Shown here: positions 1,728-26,393 of the stretch, piece after piece | Layout of the letters: the number at the start of each line of letters is the position of its first letter | Position numbering within the stretch: position 1 is the first letter of the stretch | Virus record (IMG/VR): IMGVR_UViG_3300045988_038226 | Coordinates: 1-45,325 of that record | DNA from: a virus | Length of the DNA stretch: 45,325 nucleotides | Strand: one strand, 5' to 3' | Made by a program: the position numbers and the translations under genes | The notes under the pieces: model-generated | Told to the model about the DNA's origin: nothing | Databases searched by the model: none | What the model saw: only the letters and a program-made list of their open reading frames with translations

Positions 1728-1734
1728 AATCCAA

Positions 1735-3072: not shown

Positions 3073-3086
3073 CTGCGTTCTAAATT

Positions 3087-3126: not shown

Positions 3127-3146
3127 ATTAAACAATTGCGGCTCCC

Positions 3147-4244
3147 TTACGGCGTTACCGTCGGTTGTGGTACAACGTAAACGGGCATTGCTAACGGTTG
3201 GTTCGGGTCGCGTGCCTCAATTTCCGCTTTGATAATCGGGTTGGCAATCGTGGTCGGGTTGCTGTTATAAGCAACCATATACGCCACGTCAACGGAAAAT
3301 CCGAAATACTCCTTAACGGCGCACGTCAAATCTTCGGTTGCGGCTCCCATGATTGCGGATTGGTCGCCAACTGCGGTGTAATAGTGCGACCCAACGGGCA
3401 AATCAATGTACGGTAAACGTACAACGTCCCATTCGTGGAAATTCGCACGGGTGCGGCGCAACGCTTCACGGTCAACACGGGTTAAGATACCAACGTTGCC
3501 GTCCGCAACGGCAAAGAATGTACCCATTTTACCGCTTTCGTCGGTAACGTTGTTCGTGTAGTGGATAACCTTGTTATCGTATTCCATGCGCTTGTTAACG
3601 TCGTTGTAAATTCCGTGTTGCGCAAGTTTACGAATAAGGCTATCAACCCCGGCGTTGCCGATAACGTGGATATATTCCGGGTAACAGTTGGCACGCATAA
3701 TCGGGTTAACGTCGCCCAATATCTCGGTTGCCATTTGTTGCGGAACCTGTATAACGTTTCCGGTCTGCGTATAATTCAACAACGTTTCAAACACTTGCGT
3801 TTTGTTCGCCTCCATTGCGGCAACCGCCCCGGCGTCCAAAGTGTTTGCCAACGCACGGCACGTCTTTTCCATTTTGCGCAAAAAGTCGTGTTCGTATGAA
3901 ATTTCGTTGTTCATGTACGCCGCCGGAACCATTGTAAAGCCAATGGAATACGTCGCCCAAACAAGCGTTACCAATGCCGACGTATTTTCATTGTCGGCAA
4001 TAACGCACGAACGTACATTGCTTACCTGTACGTTTTCGTCGTAATTGATAACGGGAACTTGTACCGTGTTACCGATACTTGCAAACGCTTTATCCCTTAA
4101 ATTGGGATTAATGATTGAGGACGGGGCGTTGGTTTGCTCAATGAAAAAGTCCAATGCGCCATACTCACACGGGCGGGTCATATTACGGTCTAACTCCGGG
4201 TTCTGTACTCGCCAATTCTGCAATCTTGTTGCTACTAATGACAT
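3147..4244 (-). CDS. Major capsid protein (putative)
   Basis: 365-aa ORF immediately after the scaffold-like gene, followed by the clearest terminator in the window. Size and position are typical of HK97-fold capsid proteins. No motif-level proof. Confidence 0.6.
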   Translation of the reverse strand: MSLVATRLQNWRVQNPELDRNMTRPCEYGALDFFIEQTNAPSSIINPNLRDKAFASIGNTVQVPVINYDENVQVSNVRSCVIADNENTSALVTLVWATYSIGFTMVPAAYMNNEISYEHDFLRKMEKTCRALANTLDAGAVAAMEANKTQVFETLLNYTQTGNVIQVPQQMATEILGDVNPIMRANCYPEYIHVIGNAGVDSLIRKLAQHGIYNDVNKRMEYDNKVIHYTNNVTDESGKMGTFFAVADGNVGILTRVDREALRRTRANFHEWDVVRLPYIDLPVGSHYYTAVGDQSAIMGAATEDLTCAVKEYFGFSVDVAYMVAYNSNPTTIANPIIKAEIEARDPNQPLAMPVYVVPQPTVTP

Positions 4245-4272
4245 AATCTAAAATTTTTATTGTTATTAAATG

Positions 4273-4291
4273 CGGGTTAACCCTTTACCCG
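4273..4291 (-). promoter_or_regulatory. Late-region motif copy: CGGG[TAAAGGGTTAA]CCCG stem-loop upstream of the capsid gene
   Basis: Minus strand reads ACGGGTAAAGGGTTAACCCGC, 30-45 nt upstream of the ATG at 4244. The core is near-identical to the copies at 8324-8336 and 11012-11024. Confidence 0.5.
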
Positions 4292-4297
4292 TGTTGT

Positions 4298-5251
4298 TTA
4301 CTTTTCCGGCAATGCGGCAATATTGTTGTCCGTCCATGCCTGTTTCATTGCGGCGTCGAACTTTTCAGAACCCGCCGTTAATCCTTGCGACATAAGGTTG
4401 GCGGCGATTGCGTCGTAAGCCTCAACCCTTGTTTTTGCGCCGGATACGTCGATTGTACCGCCGCCCGCACCGCCGGAACCGCCCGCCGGGGGAACCGTTC
4501 CGCCGCCGCCCGCTTGACGTCCTTTGTCTAAAATACCCATTGTTTCCAATTCACGGGTCAAAAGGTCGCCGGGGGTGTACGGGTTCAACTGATTGTTCGG
4601 GTTACGCATGATTGCGCCGTTTTCGTCCTTAAACGCTAATACTTTGCCGCCCTTTCCGTCGTCGATAAACTCCGGGTTCATACCCTTAATTTTGTCAACG
4701 GCTTGCGACAATAGAACCTTTGTTGCGCTTTCCGGCAATCCCGCCTTAAACTTCAATCCGGCGGTCGCTGTCTGCAATGCCGTTTCAACACGTATGCCGA
4801 ACAATTCCGTTGTATGGGTTTGTTCGGCTTGGTCGTATTTCGTTTTTAGGTCGTTGAACTGCGTTGTAATCGCCGTTAAATCGGCTTTCGCTTGTTTCAA
4901 TGCCTTTGCGGTTTCCGCATCCGTCGCACCGTCGGCAATTGCCTTTTCCAAACGTGCCTTTTCTTTCGTCAGACTTTCGATTTGGGTTGATAACGTGGTT
5001 GCGCTTTCCGCTTTGGTTTTGAACTCGGACAACACACGCTTTGCGTAATCGTATGTTTTTTCCGTTCCGTTTTTCGCCACGCCCGTTGCCGCCAAAATAT
5101 CGGCGTCCAAATCGCCGTAAATTTTGCCCGTCTTTTGGGCTATAACGCTGTTTTCGTCATTGGCTGATAACGTGGTTATCGCCGCCAATTGTTCGTCGGT
5201 TAATCCGGCTAAAGCCGCATTTGCCTTTAATATCTCTACTGTTAATGCCAT
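4298..5251 (-). CDS. Scaffolding protein (putative)
   Basis: 317 aa, Ala/Lys/Glu/Thr-rich and helical, with a Gly-rich linker GGGGTVPPAGGSGGAGGG. Directly upstream of the capsid gene. Confidence 0.55.
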   Translation of the reverse strand: MALTVEILKANAALAGLTDEQLAAITTLSANDENSVIAQKTGKIYGDLDADILAATGVAKNGTEKTYDYAKRVLSEFKTKAESATTLSTQIESLTKEKARLEKAIADGATDAETAKALKQAKADLTAITTQFNDLKTKYDQAEQTHTTELFGIRVETALQTATAGLKFKAGLPESATKVLLSQAVDKIKGMNPEFIDDGKGGKVLAFKDENGAIMRNPNNQLNPYTPGDLLTRELETMGILDKGRQAGGGGTVPPAGGSGGAGGGTIDVSGAKTRVEAYDAIAANLMSQGLTAGSEKFDAAMKQAWTDNNIAALPEK

Positions 5252-5288
5252 AATTCTAACCCTTTGAATTTATGTGTTTAATACTCTG

Positions 5289-5789
5289 TTACTTTTTCGC
5301 CTCGGCTTTCTCGGCGGCTTTTGTTTTTGCCAACGCATCGGCAACGGCTTTGGCAATCGCCTTTTCGTTCGCCTCGGCTTGCGCTTTCAATGCTTTCTCA
5401 ACGGCGGCGTCGATTGCCTTTTGGTTTTCCTCGGCGGCTTTTGCCTCGGCTTCCTTACGGGCGGTTTCGGCGGCGGCGGCTTTCTCGGCTTTCGCCTTTT
5501 CGTTCGCCTCGGCTTGCGCTTTCATGTAATCGGCGGGGTCGTGCAAAATCGTTACCGTGTAACCCTGTTTTTTCAGATTGGAACCAACGCCGTTGTCAAA
5601 CGACTTTTTGCCGAACTTCTGAATACGGGGAACGGAAAGACGTTTGCCGCTTTCCGAATCGAATTTGCGTACCTCAATGATACAATGATACAAATGTTTC
5701 TCATTGTCGGGGACAATGTAATTTTCCGGGGTAACGTCCGTAATGGCGACGTCTTTAACTTTCCCCTCGGTTCCTGCTTTCACTCGCAT
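5289..5789 (-). CDS. Head-module coiled-coil protein with an internal duplication
   Basis: 166 aa. The C-terminal half is AKAEKAAAAE-type helix. An in-frame 29-nt duplication (5361-5389 = 5496-5524) encodes KAQAEANEKA twice. Confidence 0.35.
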   Translation of the reverse strand: MRVKAGTEGKVKDVAITDVTPENYIVPDNEKHLYHCIIEVRKFDSESGKRLSVPRIQKFGKKSFDNGVGSNLKKQGYTVTILHDPADYMKAQAEANEKAKAEKAAAAETARKEAEAKAAEENQKAIDAAVEKALKAQAEANEKAIAKAVADALAKTKAAEKAEAKK

Positions 5790-7479
5790 AATCGTTAAAT
5801 TTATTTGTTATTACTTCTATTTTCTTGGCGAATGGTATTTGCGTTCCAAACTCCAAAATGTTTGTATTTTCCCGTTCAAATCTGCGTACAAAGTTAGCAA
5901 AGTTAAGTTTTATACGCAATTCGTTCTCGGTAATTAAGTTGCGCCCGTATAAATCCAATACCTCGGTACGGGTCAAATGGCGGTACGGCTCCAATTCTGC
6001 CAATATTAACATACGTTGCAATTGGGTTGGATTGTTCCGGTACTCGGTTTCGATAAGTTGGTTTTGCAATGCGTCCAATTCCGCCTCGCTTGCGCCGCTA
6101 TCCCTTGCGGTTTTGTATCGGTTCCGCAACTCGGTTGCGTCGTACAAATAAAACTCGGTTCCGTAATTGACTTTTGCAGAAACAAACATATTGCCATACC
6201 TCAAACGGCAAACCGTTTCATCGACGAACTGTTGTGCCGCCTCAAATCCTTTCTTTACCCTGTTTAATACCGTGCTTTGACTTTCAAACGCCGCTTCAAC
6301 CTGTTGTTCGTTGAACGCTTCCCGTTGGGTTATTTCCTCGTTTTGACCGACAACCGCCGTTATTATGTTTTCACGCAAACGGCTTTCTTCCTCAACGTTA
6401 TAATCCAAACTTTGACGGTCGATTGTGGTTATTTGTACCGGGTTACGTAAATCCGGTTGTTTGTCCCCGTCCGGTATGGGTATTTCTACGAACGACCCCG
6501 CCCCGGTAATACGCTTATCCCCGCATTTGGGGCAACGCATCAATAACCCGGCTTGGTCTAATCTGTAATACCCTTGTTTGTCTTTCAAAAATCCGCCGTC
6601 GCAATAGTCGCCATTCTCGGCGTTACTGAAATCGCAACTTTGTTCGTACCCGGAATATATGGGATACGCCCCGTATAAATCCAAATGACGTTTCGATACA
6701 TGAAAGAACAAAAACCAATCCAACGCCTCCAATTCCTTTGTTAGCGGGGATTGTTTAACGTCCGGTTCTTTAAGGTTCAACGGTTCGTTCCAAAAGAACC
6801 GGGCGGGACAATAACCCAAATCGTGCGGGTTGTCAACCAACAATTCGCCAATATTGCCGCCGCCGTCCTCGGTAAATATCCGGTAACGTTCGTTATCAAT
6901 TACGGCAATACGTTTGTCGGGCTGTCTGAAAATAATCCAATCCATAACCCCGGTTGTCCTGTTTGCCTCAAAGGTTATGACGCTTTCAATAGGCAACCAA
7001 TAAAAATACGGGGTCGGGTAACGGTCGTTGTTGGGTTCGGTCGGCATATCCACAATTAAGACGCTGTTTATTTCCGTCTTGAAATACTCCCAACCTTTTG
7101 TACTCCAAATTTCCGGCTCTTTTAATACGTCCTGTCTGTAATACTCCCAATCGTCCCTTTGCTCTGTGTTCTGAAACTGATAATTGAACGCCGGGTTACG
7201 ACCGTCAAAAATACGGCTCAACTTATCAAAACAAATTCCCGTTACCTCATTCGTGCGAACGGGGTAACGGAAAAGAGTTTTGAATATTTTGAATTTGTCG
7301 TGCGGAATAAGATTGCCAACCCATGCCAAAAAATCGGTCGTCGGTTGACACATCAACGGGGTAACGTTGGTTTGGGCGTGAAACTTAATACGGTTTTGGT
7401 GTATAACCGCTTTATTTATCGTCGCCCGTTTCCGTGGTTCCGTTATCTGTTTTCTTATTTCCTTTACGTCTAATCCCAT
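5755..7479 (-). CDS. Portal protein (putative; alternative ATG at 7527)
   Basis: 574-590 aa ORF, the first large gene after the terL block. Size and position fit a portal. Contains a CPKCGDKR zinc-ribbon-like segment. No diagnostic motif. Confidence 0.5.
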   Translation of the reverse strand: MGLDVKEIRKQITEPRKRATINKAVIHQNRIKFHAQTNVTPLMCQPTTDFLAWVGNLIPHDKFKIFKTLFRYPVRTNEVTGICFDKLSRIFDGRNPAFNYQFQNTEQRDDWEYYRQDVLKEPEIWSTKGWEYFKTEINSVLIVDMPTEPNNDRYPTPYFYWLPIESVITFEANRTTGVMDWIIFRQPDKRIAVIDNERYRIFTEDGGGNIGELLVDNPHDLGYCPARFFWNEPLNLKEPDVKQSPLTKELEALDWFLFFHVSKRHLDLYGAYPIYSGYEQSCDFSNAENGDYCDGGFLKDKQGYYRLDQAGLLMRCPKCGDKRITGAGSFVEIPIPDGDKQPDLRNPVQITTIDRQSLDYNVEEESRLRENIITAVVGQNEEITQREAFNEQQVEAAFESQSTVLNRVKKGFEAAQQFVDETVCRLRYGNMFVSAKVNYGTEFYLYDATELRNRYKTARDSGASEAELDALQNQLIETEYRNNPTQLQRMLILAELEPYRHLTRTEVLDLYGRNLITENELRIKLNFANFVRRFERENTNILEFGTQIPFAKKIEVITNKFNDYASESRNRGES

Positions 7480-7630
7480 TATCGACAAATTCAAAAGTTG
7501 ATTTTTCGGGTAATTGCCAACCTCCATTGTTTCGCATACGCAAAAGCCTTTCGGCGTGGCTTATCTCATAATCGACGGTTACGTTTAAGGTCGGACACTC
7601 CAACGCAACCTTTGTAACCTTTGCGTTCAT
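7412..7630 (-). CDS. Small hypothetical protein
   Basis: 72-aa ORF, TAATG-coupled to the upstream gene. Its 3' 68-116 nt overlap the portal ORF in another frame. Confidence 0.35.
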   Translation of the reverse strand: MNAKVTKVALECPTLNVTVDYEISHAERLLRMRNNGGWQLPEKSTFEFVDNGIRRKGNKKTDNGTTETGDDK

Positions 7631-8277
7631 TACGCCCCGGTTGCCTTTAAGTCCGTCAACGGATTAAACGACGGTACGATAATTGCCAAATCGTCCGACC
7701 AATTAGGCAAAAACGACCATTGTATTGCGTTGCTGTCGGGGGCTTCCAATCCGCCCAACGTTTTGTCGCCAATGAACAACGAACGTATCGGAATTGGGTA
7801 ATACGTCCCGTCGGTTGTGGCGTCCTTAATCGCTCCGATTGCGCCGTTTTCGTCGAAAAGGAAAATACCCAAATTGTCGCCCCAACTTTCGCATTGCATT
7901 TCCTTTAACGCTTTTATTACTTCCTGTGGGGCTTTGCGGATAACTCCGGTAAACGGGGTTGGTTCACGCCCTATAATTTCCTCAACGCCTCCCAACGTTT
8001 CGTTACCGCCTCCAAAGGTGCGGGCGGCTCCCGCCTCGGCGGTTGGGGCTTGGATATACGGGGAAACAACAATTTTGGTTCCGTCCGCCGCCGTCATTTT
8101 CGGCGTCCATGACGCAAGCAATGTTATTGCCGCTTCACTCGTAAAACTGTTTTTGGTTCCGTCCGCCTTTGTCAGACGTTGAAACGCTACCTTTTGAATT
8201 TGCCCGAAACTTTCGGCGCAAACAATGGCGGGTACATCGGGCAAAGCCGCCGCCGCTGGACATTTACAAATTGGCAT
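7630..8277 (-). CDS. Virion-module protein of unknown function
   Basis: 215-aa Gly/Thr/Ala-rich ORF between terL and the portal, preceded by its own intergenic region carrying the late motif. Confidence 0.4.
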   Translation of the reverse strand: MPICKCPAAAALPDVPAIVCAESFGQIQKVAFQRLTKADGTKNSFTSEAAITLLASWTPKMTAADGTKIVVSPYIQAPTAEAGAARTFGGGNETLGGVEEIIGREPTPFTGVIRKAPQEVIKALKEMQCESWGDNLGIFLFDENGAIGAIKDATTDGTYYPIPIRSLFIGDKTLGGLEAPDSNAIQWSFLPNWSDDLAIIVPSFNPLTDLKATGA

Positions 8278-8319
8278 AATCTTAATTTTTTAACGTTAAA
8301 AACTTATGTTACTATCTCC

Positions 8320-8340
8320 GGGGGTTTACCCTTTACCCCC
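8320..8340 (-). promoter_or_regulatory. Late-region motif copy: GGGGG[TAAAGGGTAAA]CCCCC stem-loop
   Basis: Minus strand reads AAAGGGGGTAAAGGGTAAACCCCCGG in the terL to 215-aa intergenic region, 45-60 nt upstream of the ATG at 8277. A TAACTTTG (-7-like) box lies at 8361-8354. Confidence 0.5.
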
Positions 8341-8403
8341 TTTGTTTCGGCTACAAAGTTATAAACTTTTTCAGTTATAAACTTGCATATCCCAAAAATA
8401 TTG

Positions 8404-9957
8404 CTAATTGCGACGCTTTACGCCTCGGTTGGCGTGTGCGTATGGCTGTATATTACCGTCGGCAATTTCCTTTTCGTATATCCCGGTCAATCCGTCCTCC
8501 GGGTCGTCGTGCGTGTTCGCATCGAACTTGCGCAAAAATCCGGTTACATGGTCGTACACGGCTTTGTATCTCGTTTCCCAACCGAACGGCATAATAATAC
8601 ATTGGTTTACCATTGCCGACGCTGTTATTATCCGGCTTTCTTTGTTGCCGCCTTGATAAAACGGGTCTGTCATTGCCCGCACTTTCTTTTTAATAACCTT
8701 TTCGTAACCCGCACCGCCGTTGTTACTCTCAACCCATACTTTTTGCGTGCCGTTCCTGTTTACCATTGCCGGGACGGTTACGGTTGTTACGTCCGTGTTT
8801 TCGTCCGTCATTTCCATATCGGTAATAAGCGCATACAATATCGGCTCCATACGCTTTGTTTGTTCGTTGAAAAACAGATTGGGCGATTTGTACACGTCAT
8901 ACGTTGCGGCAAACAAAAGGTCGTCGCCCTCGTCGGCAACGTCTATGTATGCACCGGAACGAATATACGTGCCGTAATCGGATTTTTCAACCCACGTTTT
9001 GAAAGGTTGGTACAATCGACCCTCGGCACTTCCGGGGTTGCCCTGATATAAGCACTGAAATTGTACCGGGTCTAATGCCTTTTGCCCCTCCAATTTTAGT
9101 TTACTGTGTCGCCCCTCCCATAAAGCCGCCCCCGGTTCCCGTGGGTCTATCTCGGTCGGTTCCCCTGTTTTGATTGCCTCAAAGTTTATGCGAACCCATG
9201 CGCCGGGGGGTATGTTCTGTAAATCCGCCCAACACGTTATATCAATGATTATTTCCCCGCTTTTCTCAATGCGTCCAATCAAATCGTCGTCGTGCCAACG
9301 GGTAAATACAATCAATTCTTGCGAATTGTTATGCAAACGGGTACGTACAACGGTCGTGTACCATTTCCACGCCGCCGCCCGTACTATTGGGCTGTTACCC
9401 TCGGCGTAATCCTTATACACGTCGTCCAATATGGATACGTCCACGGTTTTAGACGTAAGCGAACCGCCACGACCAACGACACGCAACGACCCCTTACGCC
9501 CGACCATTTCGATAACATCACTATTGCGCAAATAGGTATTCGCCATTGTTACAACGTTCGACCCGTTAAGGTATGTACCGGGGAATAATTCACGATACCG
9601 GGGCGTGTCGATAATTCGTTGAACGTCCCGGTTGAAATCCCGTGCGATTGTCGCCGCATACGACCCAATTACAATTTTTAAGTCCGGGTTTAACCCCTCC
9701 ATAAATGCGGGTAATTTACGGCTTGACCCCTCCGATTTGCCATGTTGCGGGGGTTGTTGAACAATCATTTTACGTATTAACCCGTGTGCGAACATATCCA
9801 ACAACGTATAATATACGACGTGGAACGGCTCCAATACCATATCCGGTTGCATATACCGGGAAAAGTTGATTAACCGATTGCGGGCGGCTTCCTTGACTAT
9901 TTCGCCGGGGTTCTCGCTTATGGCTTTATACATTGCCAACATTTCGTCGTTTGTCAT
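8404..9957 (-). CDS. terL: Terminase large subunit
   Basis: 517 aa with Walker A-like QQPPQHGKSEG, Walker B-like VSILDDVY and a C-terminal nuclease-type acidic motif YIDVADEGDD. Confidence 0.9.
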   Translation of the reverse strand: MTNDEMLAMYKAISENPGEIVKEAARNRLINFSRYMQPDMVLEPFHVVYYTLLDMFAHGLIRKMIVQQPPQHGKSEGSSRKLPAFMEGLNPDLKIVIGSYAATIARDFNRDVQRIIDTPRYRELFPGTYLNGSNVVTMANTYLRNSDVIEMVGRKGSLRVVGRGGSLTSKTVDVSILDDVYKDYAEGNSPIVRAAAWKWYTTVVRTRLHNNSQELIVFTRWHDDDLIGRIEKSGEIIIDITCWADLQNIPPGAWVRINFEAIKTGEPTEIDPREPGAALWEGRHSKLKLEGQKALDPVQFQCLYQGNPGSAEGRLYQPFKTWVEKSDYGTYIRSGAYIDVADEGDDLLFAATYDVYKSPNLFFNEQTKRMEPILYALITDMEMTDENTDVTTVTVPAMVNRNGTQKVWVESNNGGAGYEKVIKKKVRAMTDPFYQGGNKESRIITASAMVNQCIIMPFGWETRYKAVYDHVTGFLRKFDANTHDDPEDGLTGIYEKEIADGNIQPYAHANRGVKRRN

Positions 9958-10181
9958 TGTTGCCCCTCCTTTGGTTTTGGTTCAAACTTTGCGCACGCTT
10001 GACGTCCTCGGATTATATGCCATTGTTCAAACGGACACGTAAGGCAAATATATTTCCCCTCCCAATCCTTATTTTGGTGCGTTTCGACCCAACGGGCGTG
10101 TTTACAGTCGTCGCAAATATGTTTCGTCCATTCCGGTTGCTTTTGTCCCGGACGGGTTGCGGGTGCGGTTCTCTTTGCCAT
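9954..10181 (-). CDS. Small Cys-rich (zinc-finger-like) protein between terS and terL
   Basis: 75 aa with CDDC...CLTC...C. ATGA-coupled to terL and TAATG-coupled to terS. Confidence 0.5.
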   Translation of the reverse strand: MAKRTAPATRPGQKQPEWTKHICDDCKHARWVETHQNKDWEGKYICLTCPFEQWHIIRGRQACAKFEPKPKEGQQ

Positions 10182-10864
10182 TATTGCGCCCCTCCTTTCT
10201 CTGCCATAACCTTTGCATATTCGGCGGATTGTAATTTGTCGGCGACGGCAAACAATAAATCCTTTGGAATAACGGTTGCATCGTATTTGGGTTTGTCGTC
10301 CTCGGTTCCGGCATTGTATCCGGGTATCTCTATTTTAACCGGGGCGTCGAACCCTAACATTTTTGCCCGTCGTTGCTGAATGTTCAACAATAAATCCAAA
10401 AAGCGGGGATTGCCCGCCGACGTTTCAACCGTTGTTTCATCATACCCGTAATATTCCGGGTCGGTATCGGTCGCATCTGTTTTGATTGGACGCCCTCGAT
10501 TGGTTTTCTCTTTGGTTCGTTGCTTTCCGGTTTTGGACGCCTCCCACGCCTCCCACGCTTGCACCTCCATTGCATCCAACTTGCGCAATTCCTGTGTAAC
10601 GTATTCGTCGATATTATCCAACCGTTCCCGCTTCCATTCGATAAGGCATTGTTGTAAATCGTAATAAACCATTGCCAACGAAATTGTATAACCTGTATTT
10701 CGTTTGGCTAAATCTGCGTTCAAAGCCGCCACAATTTCCCGGTACGTGTAACCACGTAAGAAAAGATTGGAACAAAACGCAATATCGTAATCCCGTTGTT
10801 CCTCGGTTCGCTTGTTATATCCGGCGGGTTTCCGGCTCTTATTACCCGTGTTCAATTTTTCCAT
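10181..10864 (-). CDS. terS: Terminase small subunit (putative, by synteny)
   Basis: 227 aa, the first gene after the non-coding hub and upstream of terL. Has an HTH-like segment GYTYREIVAALN. Confidence 0.5.
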   Translation of the reverse strand: MEKLNTGNKSRKPAGYNKRTEEQRDYDIAFCSNLFLRGYTYREIVAALNADLAKRNTGYTISLAMVYYDLQQCLIEWKRERLDNIDEYVTQELRKLDAMEVQAWEAWEASKTGKQRTKEKTNRGRPIKTDATDTDPEYYGYDETTVETSAGNPRFLDLLLNIQQRRAKMLGFDAPVKIEIPGYNAGTEDDKPKYDATVIPKDLLFAVADKLQSAEYAKVMAEKGGAQ

Positions 10865-11881: not shown

Positions 11882-12955
11882 TTAATTTTTGGGTTCATAA
11901 TGTCCGCACGCCTTTTCGTCGCAACGGGTGTTATCTTTTATCGTGTCGCAATATCCGACGCCATCGACGTCCTCGCAACTCATATTTTCGCATTTGCCGC
12001 AAACTTCGATATTTTCCGGGTCGAACTTACAAGGGGAAACGCCGTGCGGGTGTTTGCGTTTATACATTGGGTCGGTTTGGCGTCCCTTTACTTTGTCGTA
12101 TGCCATTTCCAACAATTCCCGTTGGGTTATTCCCAATATTGCGGCGGAATGAAAAACGACGGCGTTAAGGTCTGCCAATTCATCAATAACGGCGTTCATT
12201 TGTGCCGGGTCGTCGAACGTTGGCATTGCCGCCCTTACAACTTCTTTGTATTCGTTAAATTCTTCCTCAATTTTACGACAACGGGACGCAATATTGGTTC
12301 CGAACAACTCATTGAACAAATCGACAATTTCAGTAATCGACGGGCGGGCGGGTTTACCGTCGTAATTTCCAACGGTGCGTATTCCTTTGGGTTCAAATTC
12401 CCGGTTAAATTCACGTTCCGGGCGGGCGGTCAATCGTCCGTTCGGTTCCCGGACAATGTACCATTTTTCCGGGGCGTCAATGAATATGCCGTTGCCGTCC
12501 GGGAATGAATATACGGCGATACCGTCCGGGGTTCTCGGCGTTGTCATTGTTCCGCCGCCTGTAAATTTAACAAGGGTTTCCACATTGTCCCGGCGAACTT
12601 GGATTGCGTCAACCTCCAACAAAGAACGGCAATACTTTTGCCCGGCTGTAAAATCCGGGTCGGTTAAACGGGTGCGTATTTCCTCCGGGTACTCGGTCGG
12701 GTCGTACTCAACCGTAACAGATTGGCGACCGTCTTTATATTCCCACGCAATCGCACGGGTTCCCAATCGACCGTTAACGGCTTGTTTGATTGCCTCGGCT
12801 TTTTGCCCCTCCGGGTTGGTACGGTCGCACGGGCATTGCTCCCAACTCAAAACGAAATAATCCGATTGGGGTTTTACGTCAATCGGGTTGCCTGTTAAGT
12901 CCTCGACCATTGCGCACAAATCGCAATCGAACGGGGATAAAATTTGTTTGTTCAT
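11882..12955 (-). CDS. MazG-like NTP pyrophosphohydrolase domain fused to unknown N-terminal and Cys-rich C-terminal regions
   Basis: 357 aa. KIEEEFNEYKE...VIDELADLNAVVFH resembles the MazG EExxE...DExxD signature. The C-terminus reads CKF..CGKCENMSCED..C..C..C. Confidence 0.5.
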   Translation of the reverse strand: MNKQILSPFDCDLCAMVEDLTGNPIDVKPQSDYFVLSWEQCPCDRTNPEGQKAEAIKQAVNGRLGTRAIAWEYKDGRQSVTVEYDPTEYPEEIRTRLTDPDFTAGQKYCRSLLEVDAIQVRRDNVETLVKFTGGGTMTTPRTPDGIAVYSFPDGNGIFIDAPEKWYIVREPNGRLTARPEREFNREFEPKGIRTVGNYDGKPARPSITEIVDLFNELFGTNIASRCRKIEEEFNEYKEVVRAAMPTFDDPAQMNAVIDELADLNAVVFHSAAILGITQRELLEMAYDKVKGRQTDPMYKRKHPHGVSPCKFDPENIEVCGKCENMSCEDVDGVGYCDTIKDNTRCDEKACGHYEPKN

Positions 12956-13727: not shown

Positions 13728-13752
13728 TTAAAACCGGGGGCGAACCCCCGGC
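13728..13752 (-). terminator. Rho-independent terminator after the lipoprotein gene
   Basis: Minus strand reads CGCCGGGGGTTCGCCCCCGGTTTTAAT: 7-bp GC stem, TTCG loop, T4. Confidence 0.7.
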
Positions 13753-13760
13753 GATTAAAA

Positions 13761-14084
13761 TTAAACTTCTGTTACGCTTACAATGTATTTGGAATTGTTG
13801 ACAATTTCCAAAAACCGTTCAACGTCCTTTTCGGGAACCTTTGCCGTAATCGTCGTTTTGAAATCAAAACTAATTTTGGCGTCGGTAAACATTCGGCTTA
13901 ATTGCTCCATGTAATCAATACCAATTTTGTACGTTTCCGGCGTGTCCTCTAATTCTACAATAAAGGTTCGCAATGTAACCTCAATTGGCGGGTCAACCGT
14001 TGGTTCGTTGTCGTCGTCCCTGTTACAAGACGTCCCGATTAACAACATTGCCACAATAGGCAACAAATACTTAAATACTTTCAT
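13761..14084 (-). CDS. Secreted lipoprotein (moron-like; candidate superinfection-exclusion or host-surface factor)
   Basis: 107 aa from the ATG at 14084. MKVFKYLLPIVAMLLIGTSC is a signal peptide with a lipobox Cys. The gene has its own promoter and terminator. Confidence 0.7.
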   Translation of the reverse strand: MKVFKYLLPIVAMLLIGTSCNRDDDNEPTVDPPIEVTLRTFIVELEDTPETYKIGIDYMEQLSRMFTDAKISFDFKTTITAKVPEKDVERFLEIVNNSKYIVSVTEV

Positions 14085-14103
14085 ATAAAAATGAATTTGG
14101 ATA

Positions 14104-14125
14104 CCGGGAAAACGCCCGGTCGTTT
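14104..14125 (-). promoter_or_regulatory. Family-1 stem-loop (AACGACCGGGCGTTTTCCCGGT) in the 5' leader of the lipoprotein gene
   Basis: CCGGG / CGTTTT loop / CCCGG, 26 nt downstream of the P4 -7 box. A second hairpin GGGGAAcaaTTCCCC lies at 14127-14141. Confidence 0.6.
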
Positions 14126-14150
14126 GGGGAATTGTTCCCCGTTGTGATTG

Positions 14151-14181
14151 CAAAGGTATAAACATTTCCTTAACTACCAAA
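14151..14181 (-). promoter_or_regulatory. Bacteroidota-type promoter P4
   Basis: -33 TTTG (14181-14178), 19-nt spacer, -7 TACCTTTG (14158-14151). The 30 nt at 14170-14199 are identical to 32092-32121. Confidence 0.7.
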
Positions 14182-14185
14182 AGAA

Positions 14186-14536
14186 TTATCTTTTATTTTT
14201 GCGTTTTATCCAAATAAACCGGATACCCACGCCAATAAACAACAATTTCAATTCAACGTCAACGTAACGGTCGTAACCGTTGACCGCATCGACGGAAACG
14301 CCGGGAACGACAAACCAACTATTGTATTTCAGATATTCACGGGCAAACAGATAAAAACCGAACCGCCATATATGGAACCCAATTTGTACCATGTGGCGAC
14401 GTTCTTTGTGTTCTACTTCGTTGCAATAATAACATTTACCCGTCTTTATATCTTTTACGGTTCCGTGGCTATCAATAACGGTTCCCCGTATTTTTTCGCC
14501 TGTTACAATTACTTTGTACTTTTTTGCATCTTTCAT
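14186..14536 (-). CDS. Hypothetical protein, possibly membrane-associated
   Basis: 116-aa ORF with a hydrophobic and aromatic C-terminal half (IGFHIWRFGFYLF...LLFIGVGIRFIWI). Confidence 0.45.
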   Translation of the reverse strand: MKDAKKYKVIVTGEKIRGTVIDSHGTVKDIKTGKCYYCNEVEHKERRHMVQIGFHIWRFGFYLFAREYLKYNSWFVVPGVSVDAVNGYDRYVDVELKLLFIGVGIRFIWIKRKNKR

Positions 14537-15036
14537 TTTTTTGCCTCCTTTGTCATTTCGTAACTCTCTTTATCCATAACCATTGCCACGGGGTACGGCA
14601 ATATGCAATCTTTGGTATAAACCAAATTGTAAATCCCCAATTGCCCCTTAACGGGAAATTCGATAACCCGGCGGGGGTTCCGCATCAACCACCCGTACCC
14701 CTTTGTTATCGCCTTGCGCTTTTCCGGGGGTATTCGGGTTTGCTCCCAATCATACGGGGTAAAATTGGCGACGGGCTTAATATCGTATAATTCGACCAAC
14801 CCCAACGTAACGCCGTTTTCATATCCGGGCAAATCCGGGTTTTTGGACGAACAAATTAAAAGGTCGCCCCGGTACGTTGTGTTTTTGCTTCGTACTTCAA
14901 TCGACTTTTCGGCGTAAATAATCCCGTTGTCCTCAAACGCCGCCGTTACCAACTGTGTTGCATACGGATTTTTTACGGTTAACGCCCGCCAACGGTCGTG
15001 TTGGGCGGGGTTATAATCTTTACTATTAAACTGCAT
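14533..15036 (-). CDS. ASCH (PUA-like fold) domain protein
   Basis: 167 aa from the ATG at 15036. ALTVKNPYATQLV...KSIEVRSKNTTYRGDLLICSS resembles the ASCH pattern LSIxQPWAxxI..K.IE.R...T.YRG.LLIH. Confidence 0.55.
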   Translation of the reverse strand: MQFNSKDYNPAQHDRWRALTVKNPYATQLVTAAFEDNGIIYAEKSIEVRSKNTTYRGDLLICSSKNPDLPGYENGVTLGLVELYDIKPVANFTPYDWEQTRIPPEKRKAITKGYGWLMRNPRRVIEFPVKGQLGIYNLVYTKDCILPYPVAMVMDKESYEMTKEAKK

Positions 15037-15877
15037 TTTCGTTCCTGTTTTCGTTAAACAAATCCCAATTTGCCGGGACGCAATGGACGGGCAACAATTC
15101 CCGTTCAATCCCGGACGCCTTTACAAAACTATCTTTCCAATATATCCGGGGCGTACTCTTTGGGTGCGCCTCCCAATATTCCGTTACGGTTTGATAGAAC
15201 GCCAACGTATCCCGCTTGGTATATCGGCAACCGCTTTGTAATCCGATTTTGAAAAGGTCAACAAAGGGATACGACAACGCAATTACAGAATACGCCCGGT
15301 CAAACATTCCCGGCGGGATTGGTTCCACACTCGCAAAGGTACGGAACCCGTGGCGTTTCGCCCGTGCCAATGCGTTTATCCGCATTTTGTTTGGGCTTGC
15401 GTTTGGCTCCAATTCGTCGCACCCGGTCAACGTGGAACCAATGGCAATGCGGGATACGTCCCAACCCTCGGACGCCTCGGCAAAGTCAACAAAAAGGTTT
15501 ATACCCTCGGCGCATTTGCTCAATATCTTAACCGGGACGCCGTGCCGTTGGCATACGCCGACCGCTTGACGGGTCAACCTTTGCGTTTCCGGCAACAACG
15601 GGTCGGTCGTAAATGAAAAGAACAACCCGGTTTTCTGCAATTCGTCCTTATGCTTTAATAACTCGTTTTTGAATATATCCAACGCATACGGGTACTCTCT
15701 CAACGTTTTTTTCAACTCCGGGCGATTGCCTCCCAACACTTTTGCGCCACGACCTTTGCGCAAATAACAGTACGTACAACCGTTTGAACAACCAACGTAA
15801 AAATTGGCGGCGTTCTCGGCATATTCTCCGGCTTTACCCTTTGGGCTATAAATAACCCGTCCGTTTATCGCTCCCAT
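15026..15877 (-). CDS. Radical SAM protein, SplB/DNA-repair-photolyase-like (COG1533-type)
   Basis: 283 aa. FYVGCSNGCTYCY gives the CX3CX2C cluster motif (C30, C34, C37; nt 15767-15790) in the GCxxGCxYCY context of SplB-like enzymes. Confidence 0.65.
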   Translation of the reverse strand: MGAINGRVIYSPKGKAGEYAENAANFYVGCSNGCTYCYLRKGRGAKVLGGNRPELKKTLREYPYALDIFKNELLKHKDELQKTGLFFSFTTDPLLPETQRLTRQAVGVCQRHGVPVKILSKCAEGINLFVDFAEASEGWDVSRIAIGSTLTGCDELEPNASPNKMRINALARAKRHGFRTFASVEPIPPGMFDRAYSVIALSYPFVDLFKIGLQSGCRYTKRDTLAFYQTVTEYWEAHPKSTPRIYWKDSFVKASGIERELLPVHCVPANWDLFNENRNENAV

Positions 15878-15888
15878 ATTGCCAACGG

Positions 15889-16305
15889 TTAAAATGGTAA
15901 ATCGTCGGTTCCGTCGGGGGCGGGTGCATCCGCAACGGGCGGCGGCGGGGCTTGCGTCCCGGCTCCGGTCGCTTTCGGGGTCAACATTTCCATATCGGTT
16001 GCGACAATCTCGGTAATATACCGTTTGACGCCTTGCGCATCGTCATAACTCCGGGTTCGCAATTCCCCCTCAATATACAGTTTATCGCCCTTTTTGACGT
16101 ACTGATTGGCGACCTTTGCCAAACCGTTTTGCAAAACGACGTTATGCCATTCGGTACGCTCCGGGATTTGTCGCCCGTCCTTTGTGGTAAAACCTCGTTT
16201 CGTGGTTGCCAACGAAAATGTCGCCACGCAACCGCCGTTGTCGAACTCCTTAAACTCCGGGGCTTTCCCGGTGTGTCCTAATAATGTTACTTTGTTTACA
16301 CTCAT
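15889..16305 (-). CDS. ssb: Single-stranded DNA-binding protein
   Basis: 138 aa with an OB-fold N-terminus (VNKVTLLGHTGKAPE...TEWHNVVL), a Pro/Ala-rich linker and the canonical acidic tip DDLPF. Confidence 0.9.
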   Translation of the reverse strand: MSVNKVTLLGHTGKAPEFKEFDNGGCVATFSLATTKRGFTTKDGRQIPERTEWHNVVLQNGLAKVANQYVKKGDKLYIEGELRTRSYDDAQGVKRYITEIVATDMEMLTPKATGAGTQAPPPPVADAPAPDGTDDLPF

Positions 16306-18059: not shown

Positions 18060-18947
18060 TTATAAATCATTTTCAACGTATCGTTTTAACTCGGCTTGGA
18101 ACAATTCCCGTTCCTCGTTTTCCTGCGTAATCAATTCGTCGTACAAATCTTGGTCGAATATCTCGTTAACCGCATCGTTCAACATGGAAATCAATTTTTC
18201 CGGTTTTACGGCGTCTAACTCAACCTGTCCCAATCCGTCCCAATTTGCCGTCCGGCTGTCTGTTTCCTTTGCCGGGGCGGGCGGCAATTTCCATTCGATA
18301 ACCTGTTGTTCCATTAAGGCAATACGGCGTATTTCCACATCATAAACGCCGAACTTTTGCAAGTTTTCCCCAATCGACCGGGGTATGTCCTCGCCGGACG
18401 GGTCGTAATCGCCGAAATATAATATAATCGGCTTTTTACCCTCGCTTTGGGCGTCCCGTAAACGCTCGGACAATTCATATAAGAACGTTAACGACGGATA
18501 ACCTTTGCACGCTCCAACCGCAACGTCCCATTTGGCACACGGTTTCGCAAAAACGCCCTCCAACGCTTTTTTCTCAATAAGAATTTCCGGGTAATACGGT
18601 TGGTTTTCCCAACGGTTTTTGCCATACGAACGCATCCATAATCCGACCTGTCGTTTGGCTTCGTCCTGTTTGTCCTCCAATACGGTTTCCGTGGCTTTTG
18701 TCGTTCCACACATTGCCCTATCTCGGTCGCTGAACGCTTCAAAATCAACCCGACCGTCCCACCGGGCGACCTCCATTGCGGCGACAACACGTTTGTAATG
18801 CTGTAACGTGTTTGTCATTCCCCGGCTTACTAACTGATAATGCAACGCACGTATCGTCAATATACCGTTTTCGTATTGGCTCAACACGTCAATTGAATTT
18901 TCAATTATCCAATCCCGTGTAAATTCGTCTTTTGTTCGCTTTGCCAT
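18060..18947 (-). CDS. Topoisomerase VI-A/Spo11-like protein (winged-helix 5Y-CAP + Toprim; 'Topo mini-A'-type)
   Basis: 295 aa. Candidate catalytic Tyr in TIRALHYQL (Y37), Toprim Glu in EILIEKKALEG (E125) and the DxDPxG motif FGDYDPSGEDI (D180/D182). No B-subunit gene is present. Confidence 0.55.
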   Translation of the reverse strand: MAKRTKDEFTRDWIIENSIDVLSQYENGILTIRALHYQLVSRGMTNTLQHYKRVVAAMEVARWDGRVDFEAFSDRDRAMCGTTKATETVLEDKQDEAKRQVGLWMRSYGKNRWENQPYYPEILIEKKALEGVFAKPCAKWDVAVGACKGYPSLTFLYELSERLRDAQSEGKKPIILYFGDYDPSGEDIPRSIGENLQKFGVYDVEIRRIALMEQQVIEWKLPPAPAKETDSRTANWDGLGQVELDAVKPEKLISMLNDAVNEIFDQDLYDELITQENEERELFQAELKRYVENDL

Positions 18948-20572: not shown

Positions 20573-21796
20573 TTATTGTTTATCGTTCCCGTCGCTGTTA
20601 TCTCTCTTTTTTTCATCGTCGATTAACTTTTGCATGGTAATATTAAACGCTGTCATTCCAACCGCCCGGATAAATTCCCGTTCGTTTGATGAATACCCGG
20701 TTGCCACTTTATCCAATATCGTTGCGAAAATAACAACGAATTTTCCCGGCTCCCAATCCCCGGCGTTGTGCATACGGTCGATAACGTGCGCTTTCAATCG
20801 TTGGTTATCCTTTGCGGCTTTTTTGCGGGCTGTTTCCCGGTCGTTCCAAAGGCTTGTTAATTGGGTTTTCACGTTGTCAAAGAACAACGGCATTTTCAGA
20901 ACGTCCGCAATACTCAAATCCGCAACCGGGGTTGGAACGGCGGCGGCGATTGCTTCGTTGACTTTCTTTTGGGCTTTGGCTTCCTTTTTCGTTGCCTCGG
21001 ATAATTTGGTTGTTGCCTCGGCAATATCGTTTATCCCGGCGGCGGTTCCTTTGTTGACCCCGTAACCGAACAACGCAAAATCCCCTTTGGTCGGGTCGTC
21101 CGGGAATATCTCGGCGAAACGGTCGGTTATTTCAATGGCGGTGCGTAAATCCGGCGTCCGGCGTGTCGTCAATCCCAACCGGATTGCCTGTTTATGTACG
21201 TGCGTATCCAACGGCATAATCAAATTACGGGGTTCGCATACCGTCCACAATCCAAAGTCAACCGGGGAACTCTTACGACACATCCAACGCAAAAACAGAC
21301 ACAACCGTTTGCAAGCCGTGGACGTCGAACCGTCCGGGATACCATTAACGGAACCAAACAAAGCCAATAGGGTTTGCAATGGTTTTTCCCCGTTCTGTGT
21401 GTTATTTATTGCCGCTTCCATATTTCCGTAAACCGTGTACACATCGCAAAGGCGTTCGCAAAGGTCGTGGAAATCCCCAAACGTAAACGTTCGGTAAAAA
21501 CTTTCGGGGCTGTCTTTATACTGTTTCCATTCCGGGGCGGCTCCGGGTTCAACATTATTGCCGACAATGTAATGATACGGTTCGCCCTTGAAAATTTCCC
21601 GGTCGATATAATCCGCCTTTTTGATTATCTGTTTGCGGTTGCCCCATGCAATCCACGCCGTAACAAAAGCGGATATTTCAATATTTACCCGACTATCGTA
21701 ACGGCGTGGAATTTGTACCGGGTCGTTTTTTACGAACTCGGCGGTTTCGTATTGTTCCGCCCAACGCTTCAAATTTTCGTTCAATGTATATGCCAT
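20573..21796 (-). CDS. DUF2400/TIGR02757-family domain fused to a ~150-aa C-terminal extension
   Basis: 407 aa. ACKRLCLFLRWMCRKSSPVDFGLW...LIMPLDTHVHKQAIRLGL...DPTKGDFALFGYG matches my recollection of the TIGR02757 signature. Residues ~255-407 have no recognised counterpart. Confidence 0.65.
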   Translation of the reverse strand: MAYTLNENLKRWAEQYETAEFVKNDPVQIPRRYDSRVNIEISAFVTAWIAWGNRKQIIKKADYIDREIFKGEPYHYIVGNNVEPGAAPEWKQYKDSPESFYRTFTFGDFHDLCERLCDVYTVYGNMEAAINNTQNGEKPLQTLLALFGSVNGIPDGSTSTACKRLCLFLRWMCRKSSPVDFGLWTVCEPRNLIMPLDTHVHKQAIRLGLTTRRTPDLRTAIEITDRFAEIFPDDPTKGDFALFGYGVNKGTAAGINDIAEATTKLSEATKKEAKAQKKVNEAIAAAVPTPVADLSIADVLKMPLFFDNVKTQLTSLWNDRETARKKAAKDNQRLKAHVIDRMHNAGDWEPGKFVVIFATILDKVATGYSSNEREFIRAVGMTAFNITMQKLIDDEKKRDNSDGNDKQ

Positions 21797-25532: not shown

Positions 25533-26393
25533 CTAATAATCGTTATTAAGAAATTCCATTGCGCCCGCAACGTCTAATTTCTTTTGCGGGGCTTGGTATT
25601 CCGGTTTCAAATGCAACTTTTTCTTTTCCACATCGCCACGAATGAAATTGCGTACCGTGGCAATCCAACCCGTCCGGGTTCTCTTTACGCCCTGTTTGGT
25701 TTCCGACCAATCGGCGACCGTATGGAAATAGTAAACCAAATCGACCCGTTCAAATTCCGGCGTCGCAAATAACTTTTCAAACTCGGAATAATCGTTGTTT
25801 CCGTCGGGCGCAAACTTAACCAATTTGTAAACCTCGGAATTGCGAAATATGGACGTTCTTTTTTTATCCTTATCGTCAACCCCTTTTTCATCCGGGAACA
25901 AATCCCCGACAACCGGGTTGGCGGGGTTACTCTGATTAGTATTTGGTTTATTTATGTCCTTTGTTGGATTAGTATTTATTAGTGTCGGGTTTTCCGTATC
26001 CGGTTTATCCGTGTCGGGTTTAACCGTATCGGGATTTTCCGGTTGTGGTGCATCCGTAACCGGATTTTCCGTATATGGCTGGACGAAAACGGGTTGGTCG
26101 CAAATTTCATACGCATAACCCGCAATTGTTCCGTCCGGGTTCCGGTTCTGTGTTTTGGAACAATACCCGAACGTTTCCAACTCTTTAATCCCACTATACA
26201 GACTATCCCGCCCGTCGGTTGCCCGGTTCGTCAAATCTCGCATATTCAAAACCCAATCGTCCGGCAACATGGCGACGTATGCAATAATTCCTTTTGCTTT
26301 CCAACTCAAACGGGTATCTTTCAAAAACTCATTCGATAAAACGGTAAAATCCCGGTCGTATTTACGACGGGTAATTGTGTTATTGTTCGCCAT
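25533..26393 (-). CDS. Replication initiator/replisome-organizer-like protein (N-terminal winged helix)
   Basis: 286 aa. FTVLSNEFLKDTRLSWKAKGIIAYVAML...GRDSLYSGIKELETFGY fits the phage O/DnaD-type wHTH pattern. The central linker PENPDTVKPDTDKPDTENP is encoded by iteron-like DNA repeats. Confidence 0.55.
   Translation of the reverse strand: MANNNTITRRKYDRDFTVLSNEFLKDTRLSWKAKGIIAYVAMLPDDWVLNMRDLTNRATDGRDSLYSGIKELETFGYCSKTQNRNPDGTIAGYAYEICDQPVFVQPYTENPVTDAPQPENPDTVKPDTDKPDTENPTLINTNPTKDINKPNTNQSNPANPVVGDLFPDEKGVDDKDKKRTSIFRNSEVYKLVKFAPDGNNDYSEFEKLFATPEFERVDLVYYFHTVADWSETKQGVKRTRTGWIATVRNFIRGDVEKKKLHLKPEYQAPQKKLDVAGAMEFLNNDY

Follow-up and report, generated by a model that had tools for sequence, protein, structure and literature searches.

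The virus record IMGVR_UViG_3300045988_038226 of IMG/VR (45,325 nucleotides, analyzed over its full length and called the window here) encodes, directly after its ssb gene, a radical S-adenosylmethionine (SAM) enzyme followed by a protein with an ASCH (ASC-1 homology; PUA-like) domain. Judged by sequence, the radical SAM protein belongs to a distinct clade of single-cluster proteins of ~270 amino acids (aa), assigned at the level of the superfamily only and placed on the branch that holds spore photoproduct lyase (SPL), COG1533, and the isomerase gp53 of Pseudomonas phage M6; by the same comparisons it falls outside both the SPL and the PA0069 family. ASCH-type genes recur near it, and the association of the two is real as recurrent proximity and is not obligate; such proximity suggests a shared process. 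A description of the locus made earlier from the letters alone (the sequence-only reading) had presented an SPL-like enzyme translationally coupled to an ASCH protein. Our analysis supports that description in part: its domain calls, the co-occurrence of the genes, and the lack of a characterized precedent hold, and family membership and conserved coupling do not. We tentatively favor, at somewhat less than even confidence, the view that the pair comprises two accessory enzymes directed at nucleobases, loosely linked as a module that reverses DNA damage or modification; DNA as the substrate, the chemistry, and the cooperation of the two proteins are all matters that we infer.

The central features of the locus are the following:

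15889..16305 (−), ssb, 138 aa (Pfam SSB, E 5.2e-29); upstream neighbor of the radical SAM gene and conserved syntenic anchor of the locus

15026..15877 (−), radical SAM enzyme, 283 aa, ATG start; contains VGCSNGCTYCY and is predicted to bind a single [4Fe-4S] cluster

15767..15790 (−), cluster motif CSNGCTYC in the translation, of the form CX3CX2C (C30, C34, and C37), with the flanking tyrosines of YCY

15026..15036 (−), overlap of the radical SAM stop with the ASCH start, 11 nucleotides (nt) in the sequence, ATGCAGTTTAA

14533..15036 (−), 167-aa ASCH (PUA-like) protein with a GKER-type octapeptide; assigned to phrog_3193 (E 7e-25; Pfam ASCH, E 0.0088)

14890..14913 (−), ASCH octapeptide AEKSIEVR, from the translation and an alignment of homologs

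Both the list of open reading frames (ORFs) and the raw sequence give a minus-strand run of ssb, the radical SAM ORF, and the ASCH ORF, with 11 nt between the ssb stop and the radical SAM start. On the coding strand the radical SAM gene ends in ...GAA AAT GCA GTT TAA and the ASCH gene begins with ATG CAG TTT AAT. The open frame of the latter spans 14533–15108 (−); its conserved start is the ATG at 15036, which yields 167 aa, and the first two residues, M1-Q2, are invariant in 35 homologs. The sequence-only reading was accurate on all three points of layout, namely a 283-aa ORF with VGCSNGCTYCY, an 11-nt overlap with the start of a 167-aa ASCH protein, and a position directly after ssb, for which it gave no strand. 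Both genes of the pair are genuine and evolve under purifying selection in the genus, where median pairwise dN/dS values are 0.14 (radical SAM), 0.13 (ASCH), and 0.05 (ssb).

In an alignment of 54 homologs of the radical SAM protein, reaching down to 46% identity, C30-X3-C34-X2-C37 and Y36 are invariant and Y38 is kept in at least 90%. No cysteine beyond these three is invariant, so the clade appears to lack an auxiliary cluster; an extra conserved cysteine or a cobalamin domain for methyl or sulfur transfer is likewise absent from it. The 54 homologs share the motifs FFSFTTDP, LEPNAS..N..R, and ASxEPI, together with an N-terminal motif, (G)KAIY.P.GKAGEY, that is specific to the phage clade. 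Many homologs carry a precomputed match to Pfam Radical_SAM. The window protein matches phrog_13321 (unknown function) weakly (E 5e-15) and NCBIfam Rv2578c at E 7.8e-4 (cutoff 430), and does not match phrog_9252, the M6 gp53 type. An AlphaFold2 (AF2) model of the protein (pLDDT 91) has alternating strands and helices; its Foldseek matches in the PDB at E ≤ 1e-3 are mostly radical SAM structures, headed by SPL (4fhf; E 1.2e-6, TM 0.56, 17% identity). When the family profile was compared with PDB sequences, SPL was the sole match (E 0.07), through the cluster motif and an 'EPxxS..R..A' segment, and a fold search of BFVD yielded no viral structure that was both close and informatively named. Identity as viperin/pVip, NrdG activase, QueE, or MiaB/MtaB was considered and rejected: PADLOC gave no match, and MiaB-type NCBIfam models matched at E ≥ 0.1 through the cluster motif only.

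The phage protein and SPL (SplB; 4fhf/4fhc) have in common the radical SAM TIM-barrel fold, a segment of the form 'EPxxS...R..A....G(F/Y)K', and the cluster motif, which is GC..GC.YCY here and GCMGHCHYCY in SPL. Both tyrosines around the third cysteine are shared, Y36 and Y38 aligning with the C-H-Y-C-Y of SPL, a feature distributed more widely than SPL. At 17% identity the differences are also plain: the phage protein is ~60–70 aa shorter, and its clade occurs in phages of non-sporulating Bacteroidota, whereas SPL occurs in spore formers. The best named sequence family of the phage protein is PA0069/Rv2578c (COG1533, 'DNA repair photolyase'), from which it differs by its clade-specific (G)KAIY.P.GKAGEY motif. 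We know of no demonstrated substrate for these cellular families, and none was found in the literature searched. In Bacteroidetes as in other phyla, COG1533 genes come under SOS control (PMC8565304), a pattern that implies a role in DNA damage.

A second link to a DNA-acting enzyme runs through Pseudanabaena phage Pam3. Its gene 46, annotated 'DNA repair photolyase', is a distant tblastn match with the cluster motif CTVGCAFC, the same motif that is quoted in the literature for M6 gp53, and its neighbors encode aGPT-Pplase1, aGPT-Pplase2, a PLP enzyme, an NTP hydrolase, and Nmad5. The gp53 protein of M6, an isomerase of the SPL-like radical SAM type, converts N-alpha-glycinylthymidine to C-alpha-glycinylthymidine on DNA; a paper on thymidine hypermodification names only two radical SAM enzymes as DNA-associated, SPL for repair and M6 gp53 for hypermodification (PMC8989533). 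Comparison of the window family with Pam3_46 by hhalign gave a probability of 95.2% (E 2.9e-8; 32% identity over 146 core columns), family columns 32–200 being aligned to residues 125–284 of the 458 in Pam3_46. The two are both phage-encoded and share the motifs (F)SFT.DP.LP and L.P.A; Pam3_46 differs in having a ~120-aa N-terminal extension and a C-terminal region, both absent from the window protein. The window clade is accordingly kin to both of these DNA-acting enzymes and falls within the family of neither. Clustering, when checked, put the radical SAM protein with nucleic acid-associated families (PA0069/COG1533, SPL, and Pam3_46 at 95%), in keeping with the earlier expectation of a nucleic acid-directed enzyme. 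Pam3 itself (L237, ON014755) carries at 885–8459 what appears to be a full thymidine-hypermodification cluster, including its M6 gp53-like radical SAM enzyme. Another of its products, Pam3_41 ('DNA topoisomerase VI'), is 34% identical (E 5e-39) to that of window positions 18060–18947 (phrog_6247).

The kinship with M6 gp53 opens an alternative, in which the radical SAM enzyme would write or remodel a protective modification of phage DNA, as M6 gp53 does, and the ASCH protein would trim or read the modified base, the purpose being evasion of restriction. We hold this to be unlikely. Core homology to M6 gp53-type isomerases via Pam3_46 (PMC8989533) speaks for it, as do the recurrent genes nearby for DNA methyltransferases and for PAPS-reductase-like, Lar-like, and Tad2-like anti-defense proteins, and the proposal that ASCH domains bind modified bases (PMC7641849). 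Against it, the Pam3 aGPT-Pplase1/2, PLP enzyme, and NTPase all gave tblastn E > 1 in the window, and a Pfam scan of nine other window proteins (three of them without any match) revealed no hydroxymethylase, thymidylate-synthase-like, or kinase gene. Among the 5-hmdU pathway genes, the annotations of relatives list no aGPT-Pplase, 5-HMUDK kinase, or PLP decarboxylase, nor do they list a thymidylate-synthase-like gene. With no partner genes found, the window is ruled out as a thymidine-hypermodification cluster. The radical SAM gene moreover moves alone between phages, which is hard to square with a multi-step pathway, and the protein lacks both the additional regions of Pam3_46 and the extra cysteine or cobalamin domain for methyl or sulfur transfer.

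Fold comparison alone would also admit an enzyme with no link to nucleic acids. Foldseek matches 2 to 7 of the radical SAM model are SuiB and SkfB, maturases of peptides that are made on ribosomes and modified after translation (RiPPs), with E-values near that of SPL, so a peptide or protein modifier or an activase (of the RiPP maturase or glycyl-radical activase type) was weighed. Such a function is most improbable: the protein has no SPASM/twitch domain or auxiliary-cluster cysteines, its sequence profiles match only SPL, PA0069, and M6 gp53-type relatives, and no precursor-peptide or glycyl-radical-enzyme partner was found in the window or in 131 other loci.

The second protein of the pair scores 17.2 bits with Pfam ASCH (PF04266) against a cutoff of 21.2 (E 0.0088), and some of its close homologs carry a precomputed PF04266 match. 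Its family profile matches the founding ASCH domain, that of human ASC-1/TRIP4, at E 0.0014 in two stretches that make up most of it. Residues A42-E-K44-S-I-E47-V-R49 form an octapeptide of the GxKxxExR type, which aligns to 'GIKRVEGR' in TRIP4; K44, E47, and R49 are invariant in the alignment of homologs, and the first position is alanine in the window and glycine in most homologs. The seven best Foldseek matches of the ASCH model are all ASCH proteins (ZmASCH and EOLA1; E 0.013–0.12), with YqfB further down, the AF2 model having a pLDDT of only 70. Taken together, the TRIP4 match, the GxKxxExR octapeptide, and the leading fold matches bear out, at the level of the superfamily only, the ASCH assignment that had been made without profile searches. 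The phage protein differs from TRIP4, EOLA1, TthASCH, and YqfB in having ~30 aa extra at the C-terminus. Some homologs (230–234 aa) have an N-terminal extension of ~65 aa, which would fill a 172-nt gap at the junction with the radical SAM gene.

A role in binding modified bases has been suggested for ASCH domains (PMC7641849), and the one in TRIP4 contributes to binding of single-stranded DNA (ssDNA) (PMC10076317). According to a 2026 preprint, each of 19 ASCH proteins tested, with both the GKER and the GKTR type represented and TRIP4 and EOLA1 among them, strips N4-acetylcytidine (ac4C) from tRNA, and the lysine and the glutamate or threonine of the octapeptide are catalytically essential in TthASCH, EOLA1, and TRIP4 ASCH (bioRxiv 10.64898/2026.02.27.708502). 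The phage family resembles these N4-acylcytosine amidohydrolases in its invariant Lys/Glu dyad, K44 and E47. The domain calls and the octapeptide indicate that the phage protein has the requisites of a base-directed amidohydrolase or single-strand binder.

Modification of tRNA is common among radical SAM enzymes, and the pair might serve counter-defense or host takeover by acting on RNA or a small molecule, the ASCH protein erasing tRNA ac4C and the radical SAM enzyme altering a tRNA base or a defense signaling nucleotide. The uniform activity of the tested ASCH proteins on tRNA ac4C (bioRxiv 10.64898/2026.02.27.708502) favors this, and Tad2-like and Lar-like neighbors suggest an anti-defense island. 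It is nonetheless quite improbable, as the nearest relatives of the radical SAM protein act on DNA and nothing ties its clade to RNA. Matches to viperin, MiaB, QueE, and NrdG-type NCBIfam models are absent or at E ≥ 0.1, with no match in PADLOC. No tRNA gene was detected in the window, the tRNA-Gln annotated in the related Alistipes phage AS73P1 being undetected there as well.

Loci of the same genus as the window were compared first for the arrangement of the pair. In those not ended by a contig edge, the order ssb, radical SAM, ASCH is kept in all but one (L111). The 11-nt overlap is present in about half; the others have gaps of 6, 75, 111, ~172, ~300, or ~325 nt, and in phage BKO1-3 the 300-nt gap holds a gene for a 'Lar-like restriction alleviation protein'. 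This variability at the junction makes the translational coupling incidental, and coupling cannot be kept as a feature of the system, as had been proposed from the window by itself. The junction is an insertion hot spot in relatives (L002 4919–5239; IMG/VR loci).

Outside the genus, linkage was assessed in 131 radical SAM loci, of which genomes supplied 65 and IMG/VR 66. The first IMG/VR scans gave in-genus loci only, and the scan was re-anchored on a distant member to reach independent lineages. ORFs in fetched loci were called by a longest-ORF greedy scheme, which lost the ASCH ORF in the in-genus loci L166 and L167. Across the 131 loci, the three commonest neighbor clusters within three genes of the radical SAM gene are all ASCH-type: the phrog_3193 type of the window (15 loci; hhalign 97% to the window family), a phrog_8581 type with the motif GxKxxTxR (13 loci), and a phrog_874 type that scores above the Pfam ASCH cutoff (10 loci). 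After dereplication at 90% radical SAM identity, an ASCH-type gene lies within 10 kilobases (kb) in 52 of 103 lineages, within three genes in 32, and next to the radical SAM gene in 15. The pairs involve at least three subfamilies and both gene orders, on the same strand in all but one; where the genes are adjacent, spacers are typically 2–13 nt.

By raw frequency, an ASCH-type gene is present in 50–57% of radical SAM loci versus 3 of 89 control loci without a radical SAM gene, the controls being centered on Tad2-like or PAPS-reductase genes of comparable phages. A regular expression for the octapeptide, which is independent of hidden Markov models (HMMs), is matched 4- to 6-fold more rarely in control than in radical SAM loci. 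Among the 25 of 76 families listed for 149 control neighbors, Pfam showed no ASCH family with two or more members. The expectation that the genes would be found together elsewhere is borne out in this form: phages and prophages that are unrelated repeatedly carry an ASCH-type gene close to their radical SAM gene.

The radical SAM gene is abundant. A set of 5.8 billion sequences yielded 1432 related representatives of 90%-identity clusters. At 50%-identity clustering, 3131 representatives match at E ≤ 1e-3, 293 of them at E ≤ 1e-30; at least 500 IMG/VR contigs encode a relative. Seventy loci were found in GTDB species genomes, nearly all of Bacteroidota (mostly Bacteroidales, Paludibacter, and Muribaculaceae), and the genome contexts inspected are prophage-like, of Mu-like, RecT/SNF2-type, and PcfJ/K-type. 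It is the only gene of the window with homologs in 68 out-of-genus loci, which indicates that it moves as a single-gene module between unrelated phage backbones. Recurrent neighbors elsewhere are genes for DNA methyltransferases, SSB, VRR-NUC, SNF2 helicase, and ParB, and a Tad2-like plus crAss001_48-domain protein is encoded close by in 9 of 69 genome loci.

Two members of the family are much longer. P0243 (635 aa) and P0248 (684 aa) have homologous N-terminal extensions of 365–415 aa with a 'DG(V/Q)HR' motif; these match DGQHR (E 0.02) and GmrSD_N/DUF262 (E 0.003), of the ParB/Srx fold, in weak and sub-threshold fashion, and a fusion artifact of gene calling is possible. In Dulem virus 36 a ParB gene lies two genes upstream of the radical SAM gene, and these ParB-related cases together are weak hints of an association with DNA. 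Separately, P0313, P0338, and P0364 share a mutually homologous C-terminal extension of ~140–190 aa with no Pfam match. In a Mu-like prophage of uncultured Bacteroides (L004/L005), a homolog of 49% identity stands beside DUF3164, DUF4494, and a Tad2-like (Thoeris anti-defense 2-like) gene, with a second, unrelated radical SAM gene at the edge of the locus.

The gene order ssb then ASCH, with no radical SAM gene, occurs in Croceibacter phage P2559S and Elizabethkingia phage TCUEAP2, an arrangement that makes ssb-ASCH the conserved pair and the radical SAM gene an insert. Elizabethkingia and Croceibacter are aerobes, and absence of the radical SAM gene from phages of hosts taken as such fits an oxygen-sensitive enzyme. 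In the marine phage P2559S (L238; 3294–5746), the ASCH homolog is a 259-aa protein with an N-terminal extension, directly after ssb, and is followed by genes for a 452-aa methyltransferase-domain protein and an 'S-adenosylmethionine decarboxylase'. A further window gene, 20573–21796 (−), encodes a 407-aa DUF2400 protein (PF09674, E 5.9e-60; 'N-glycosylase/DNA lyase' in the annotation of relatives); like the radical SAM gene it is missing from TCUEAP2, where only a 112-aa ORF occupies the syntenic site, and among out-of-genus radical SAM loci it is found in L209 only.

The radical SAM clade travels as one self-sufficient gene, located in the early DNA-metabolism region of phages and prophages whose Bacteroidota hosts are mostly anaerobes. 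SPL and M6 gp53 attack a thymine derivative in DNA with the 5'-deoxyadenosyl radical, abstracting hydrogen at the C5 substituent or beside it; the phage enzyme may by analogy carry out an oxygen-sensitive, light-independent radical transformation of a damaged or modified pyrimidine in the DNA of the infected cell. Direct reversal of damage is probably more likely than editing of a base modification, the alternative, because the gene moves alone and the partners of a pathway are absent. Single-stranded nucleic acid is a ligand of ASCH domains, and the ASCH protein would act as a base-directed binder or amidohydrolase on ssDNA or RNA, a role that fits its conserved place next to ssb. The two would then probably take part in the same broad process, without forming an obligate two-subunit enzyme.

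Comparable architectures are known in cells. ALKBH3, an O2-dependent dealkylase, is linked to the eukaryotic ASCC complex, which includes the ASCH domain of TRIP4. An SOS-regulated bacterial operon combines a COG4277 radical SAM protein with a COG1573 protein resembling uracil-DNA glycosylase (PMC8565304). In both, as may be the case in the phage, a module that binds nucleic acid or a base is joined with an enzyme acting chemically on a damaged base, to reverse or process it (PMC10076317; PMC8565304); the catalytic partners are not homologous to those of the phage, and the likeness would be one of architecture only.

A more specific version, which we rate as rather unlikely, has both proteins form an eraser or direct-reversal module for nucleobase adducts that is independent of oxygen and light. 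The ASCH protein would recognize or deacylate a modified cytosine or pyrimidine on ssDNA, and its SPL-like radical SAM partner would, by hydrogen abstraction, take off a C- or N-linked group or rearrange it. Such a module would be an anaerobic functional analog of direct repair of the AlkB/ASCC type, with which phages of gut Bacteroidales might restore damaged virion DNA or strip marks imposed by the host or its defenses. If it exists, it would add a third DNA-directed radical SAM chemistry to those of SPL and M6 gp53.

Several findings weigh against the broader reading of the pair as a nucleobase-directed module, some of them in the radical SAM protein and others in its linkage to the ASCH gene. 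The protein falls below threshold with Pfam Radical_SAM (PF04055; 26.4 bits, cutoff 29.5, E 8.7e-6), with Pfam SPL (PF20903; 11.3 bits, cutoff 27), where residues 20–46 around the cluster motif alone are aligned, and with NCBIfam PA0069 (NF033668, COG1533; 45.4 bits, cutoff 360, E 5.5e-12, residues 22–195). Its superposition on SPL is modest (TM 0.56, root-mean-square deviation 9 Å) and barely ahead of those on the RiPP maturases SuiB and SkfB. No invariant fourth cysteine corresponds to the hydrogen-donor cysteine of SPL (C141 in B. subtilis); the region expected opposite to it, residues 80–95 (LQKxGLFFSFTTDP), contains no cysteine in an alignment that is approximate and in which SPL was seen in matched segments only. 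Lesions of the UV type, moreover, are no obvious burden in the gut. Of the SPL-like, COG1533 enzyme that the sequence-only reading had named, there remain the superfamily, the PA0069 match at E 5.5e-12, and SPL as the top Foldseek match; scores under the SPL and PA0069 cutoffs place the protein in a clade of its own.

As to linkage, an ASCH-type gene within 10 kb is missing from about half of the radical SAM loci. Conversely, the phrog_3193-type ASCH gene occurs without a radical SAM gene in phages PD691P3, PD691P4, PD691P6, and PD482P1 of Parabacteroides, an anaerobe. Dereplication shrinks the control set to 20 lineages (Fisher p = 0.003) or, at 70%, to 12 (p = 0.12), so that it is underpowered and the linkage statistics are weak. 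ASCH HMMs were built from radical SAM neighborhoods, and detection is biased towards these; two of the subfamilies, aschC and aschD, are ASCH by octapeptide alone, unconfirmed by Pfam, hhalign, or PDB profile apart from a weak match of aschD to PF0469 (1xne; E 0.02), with none for aschC. In L111 (IMGVR_UViG_3300045988_058047, 9300–10600), a clean 704-nt deletion has removed ~234 of the 283 radical SAM codons and left ssb and the ASCH gene intact; an assembly artifact is possible.

The same observations bear on an alternative in which the two are unrelated accessory genes (morons) that were inserted in the same variable slot after ssb and act on different substrates, a possibility that we doubt on balance but take seriously. 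It would account for a conserved ssb-ASCH arrangement into which the radical SAM gene is inserted, for a junction that is a hot spot with six variants, the Lar-like insert among them, for the loss of the radical SAM gene in L111 beside an intact ASCH gene, and for a control comparison that is non-significant at 70% dereplication. Each gene is also found without the other, the ASCH gene alone in four phage groups and radical SAM relatives without a phrog_3193 ASCH gene in five records, and 25 longer proteins, chosen out of the 150 top-scoring representatives, included no radical SAM-ASCH fusion (all 25 searched with ASCH HMMs; a Pfam scan of 20 was uninformative). Chance sharing of a slot is harder to reconcile with at least three sequence-distinct ASCH-type subfamilies forming the top three neighbor clusters on unrelated backbones and in both orders, with the excess over controls in raw frequency (50–57% versus 3%) and by the HMM-independent octapeptide, and with the concentration of ASCH genes within three genes of the radical SAM gene (32 of the 52 lineages that have one).

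The clade constitutes a third, uncharacterized branch of the SPL/M6 gp53 lineage, and an abundant one, concentrated in phages and prophages of the dominant Bacteroidales of the human gut. Since cultured phage-host pairs (PDS1, AS73P1, C1_85S2P, and BKO1-3) carry it, direct testing is possible, and its proximity to ASCH genes offers a concrete lead on how nucleobase damage or modification may be reversed without oxygen or light. Should the two genes prove unrelated, an annotation correction would still stand: the enzyme is not a SplB/PA0069 member, the overlap is incidental, and the conserved partner of the ASCH gene is ssb.

The window belongs to a phage of gut Bacteroidales; its region is 94% identical to Alistipes phage AS73P1 and ~80% identical to Parabacteroides phages PDS1 and PD491P1 and Bacteroides phages C1_85S2P and BKO1-3. 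These relatives are ~45-kb siphoviruses; C1_85S2P, which is fully annotated, has all genes but one on one strand, and in annotated relatives the radical SAM-ASCH pair is placed at the end of the replication/recombination module. The earlier statement that no phage system of this composition has been characterized stands to the extent that full-text searches turned up none; it needs amending in that the related M6 gp53 is characterized and that the pair is already annotated in GenBank, as a 'radical SAM enzyme' and an 'ASC-1 homology / ASCH domain protein' in PDS1, C1_85S2P, and BKO1-3. The paper on PDS1 mentions gp34, the radical SAM protein of that phage, only generically, in the context of quorum sensing (PMC10773633).

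Downstream of the ASCH gene the window has the following features:

14186..14536 (−), 116-aa ORF whose start overlaps the ASCH stop by 4 nt; apparently in the same transcription unit, and not shown to be part of the pair

13761..14180 (−), 139-aa lipoprotein-like ORF, 'lipocalin lipoprotein' in the annotation of relatives; apparently in the same transcription unit as the ASCH gene

13733..13752 (−), GC-rich hairpin followed by a T-run, with an 8-bp stem of which 7 pairs are GC; a match to consensus only

The 116-aa product has a CCHC-like knuckle (a weak zf-CCHC match, E 0.11) and a hydrophobic C-terminal half; neither small ORF has a PHROG or PADLOC match. The hairpin is the first strong terminator-like site downstream of ssb, radical SAM, and ASCH, with the two small ORFs lying between; no such strong hairpin was found between ssb and the ASCH gene, and the count of terminator-like sites in the region is not above shuffled expectation.

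Two more window genes may be mentioned. At 11882–12955 (−) a 357-aa protein is labeled a MazG NTP pyrophosphohydrolase in relatives and has no Pfam match at E ≤ 1e-3. The gene at 26380–27108 (−) encodes a Gp3-like, 'recombination directionality factor-like' protein (PF18897, E 4.6e-33); the relatives of the phage are described as lytic.

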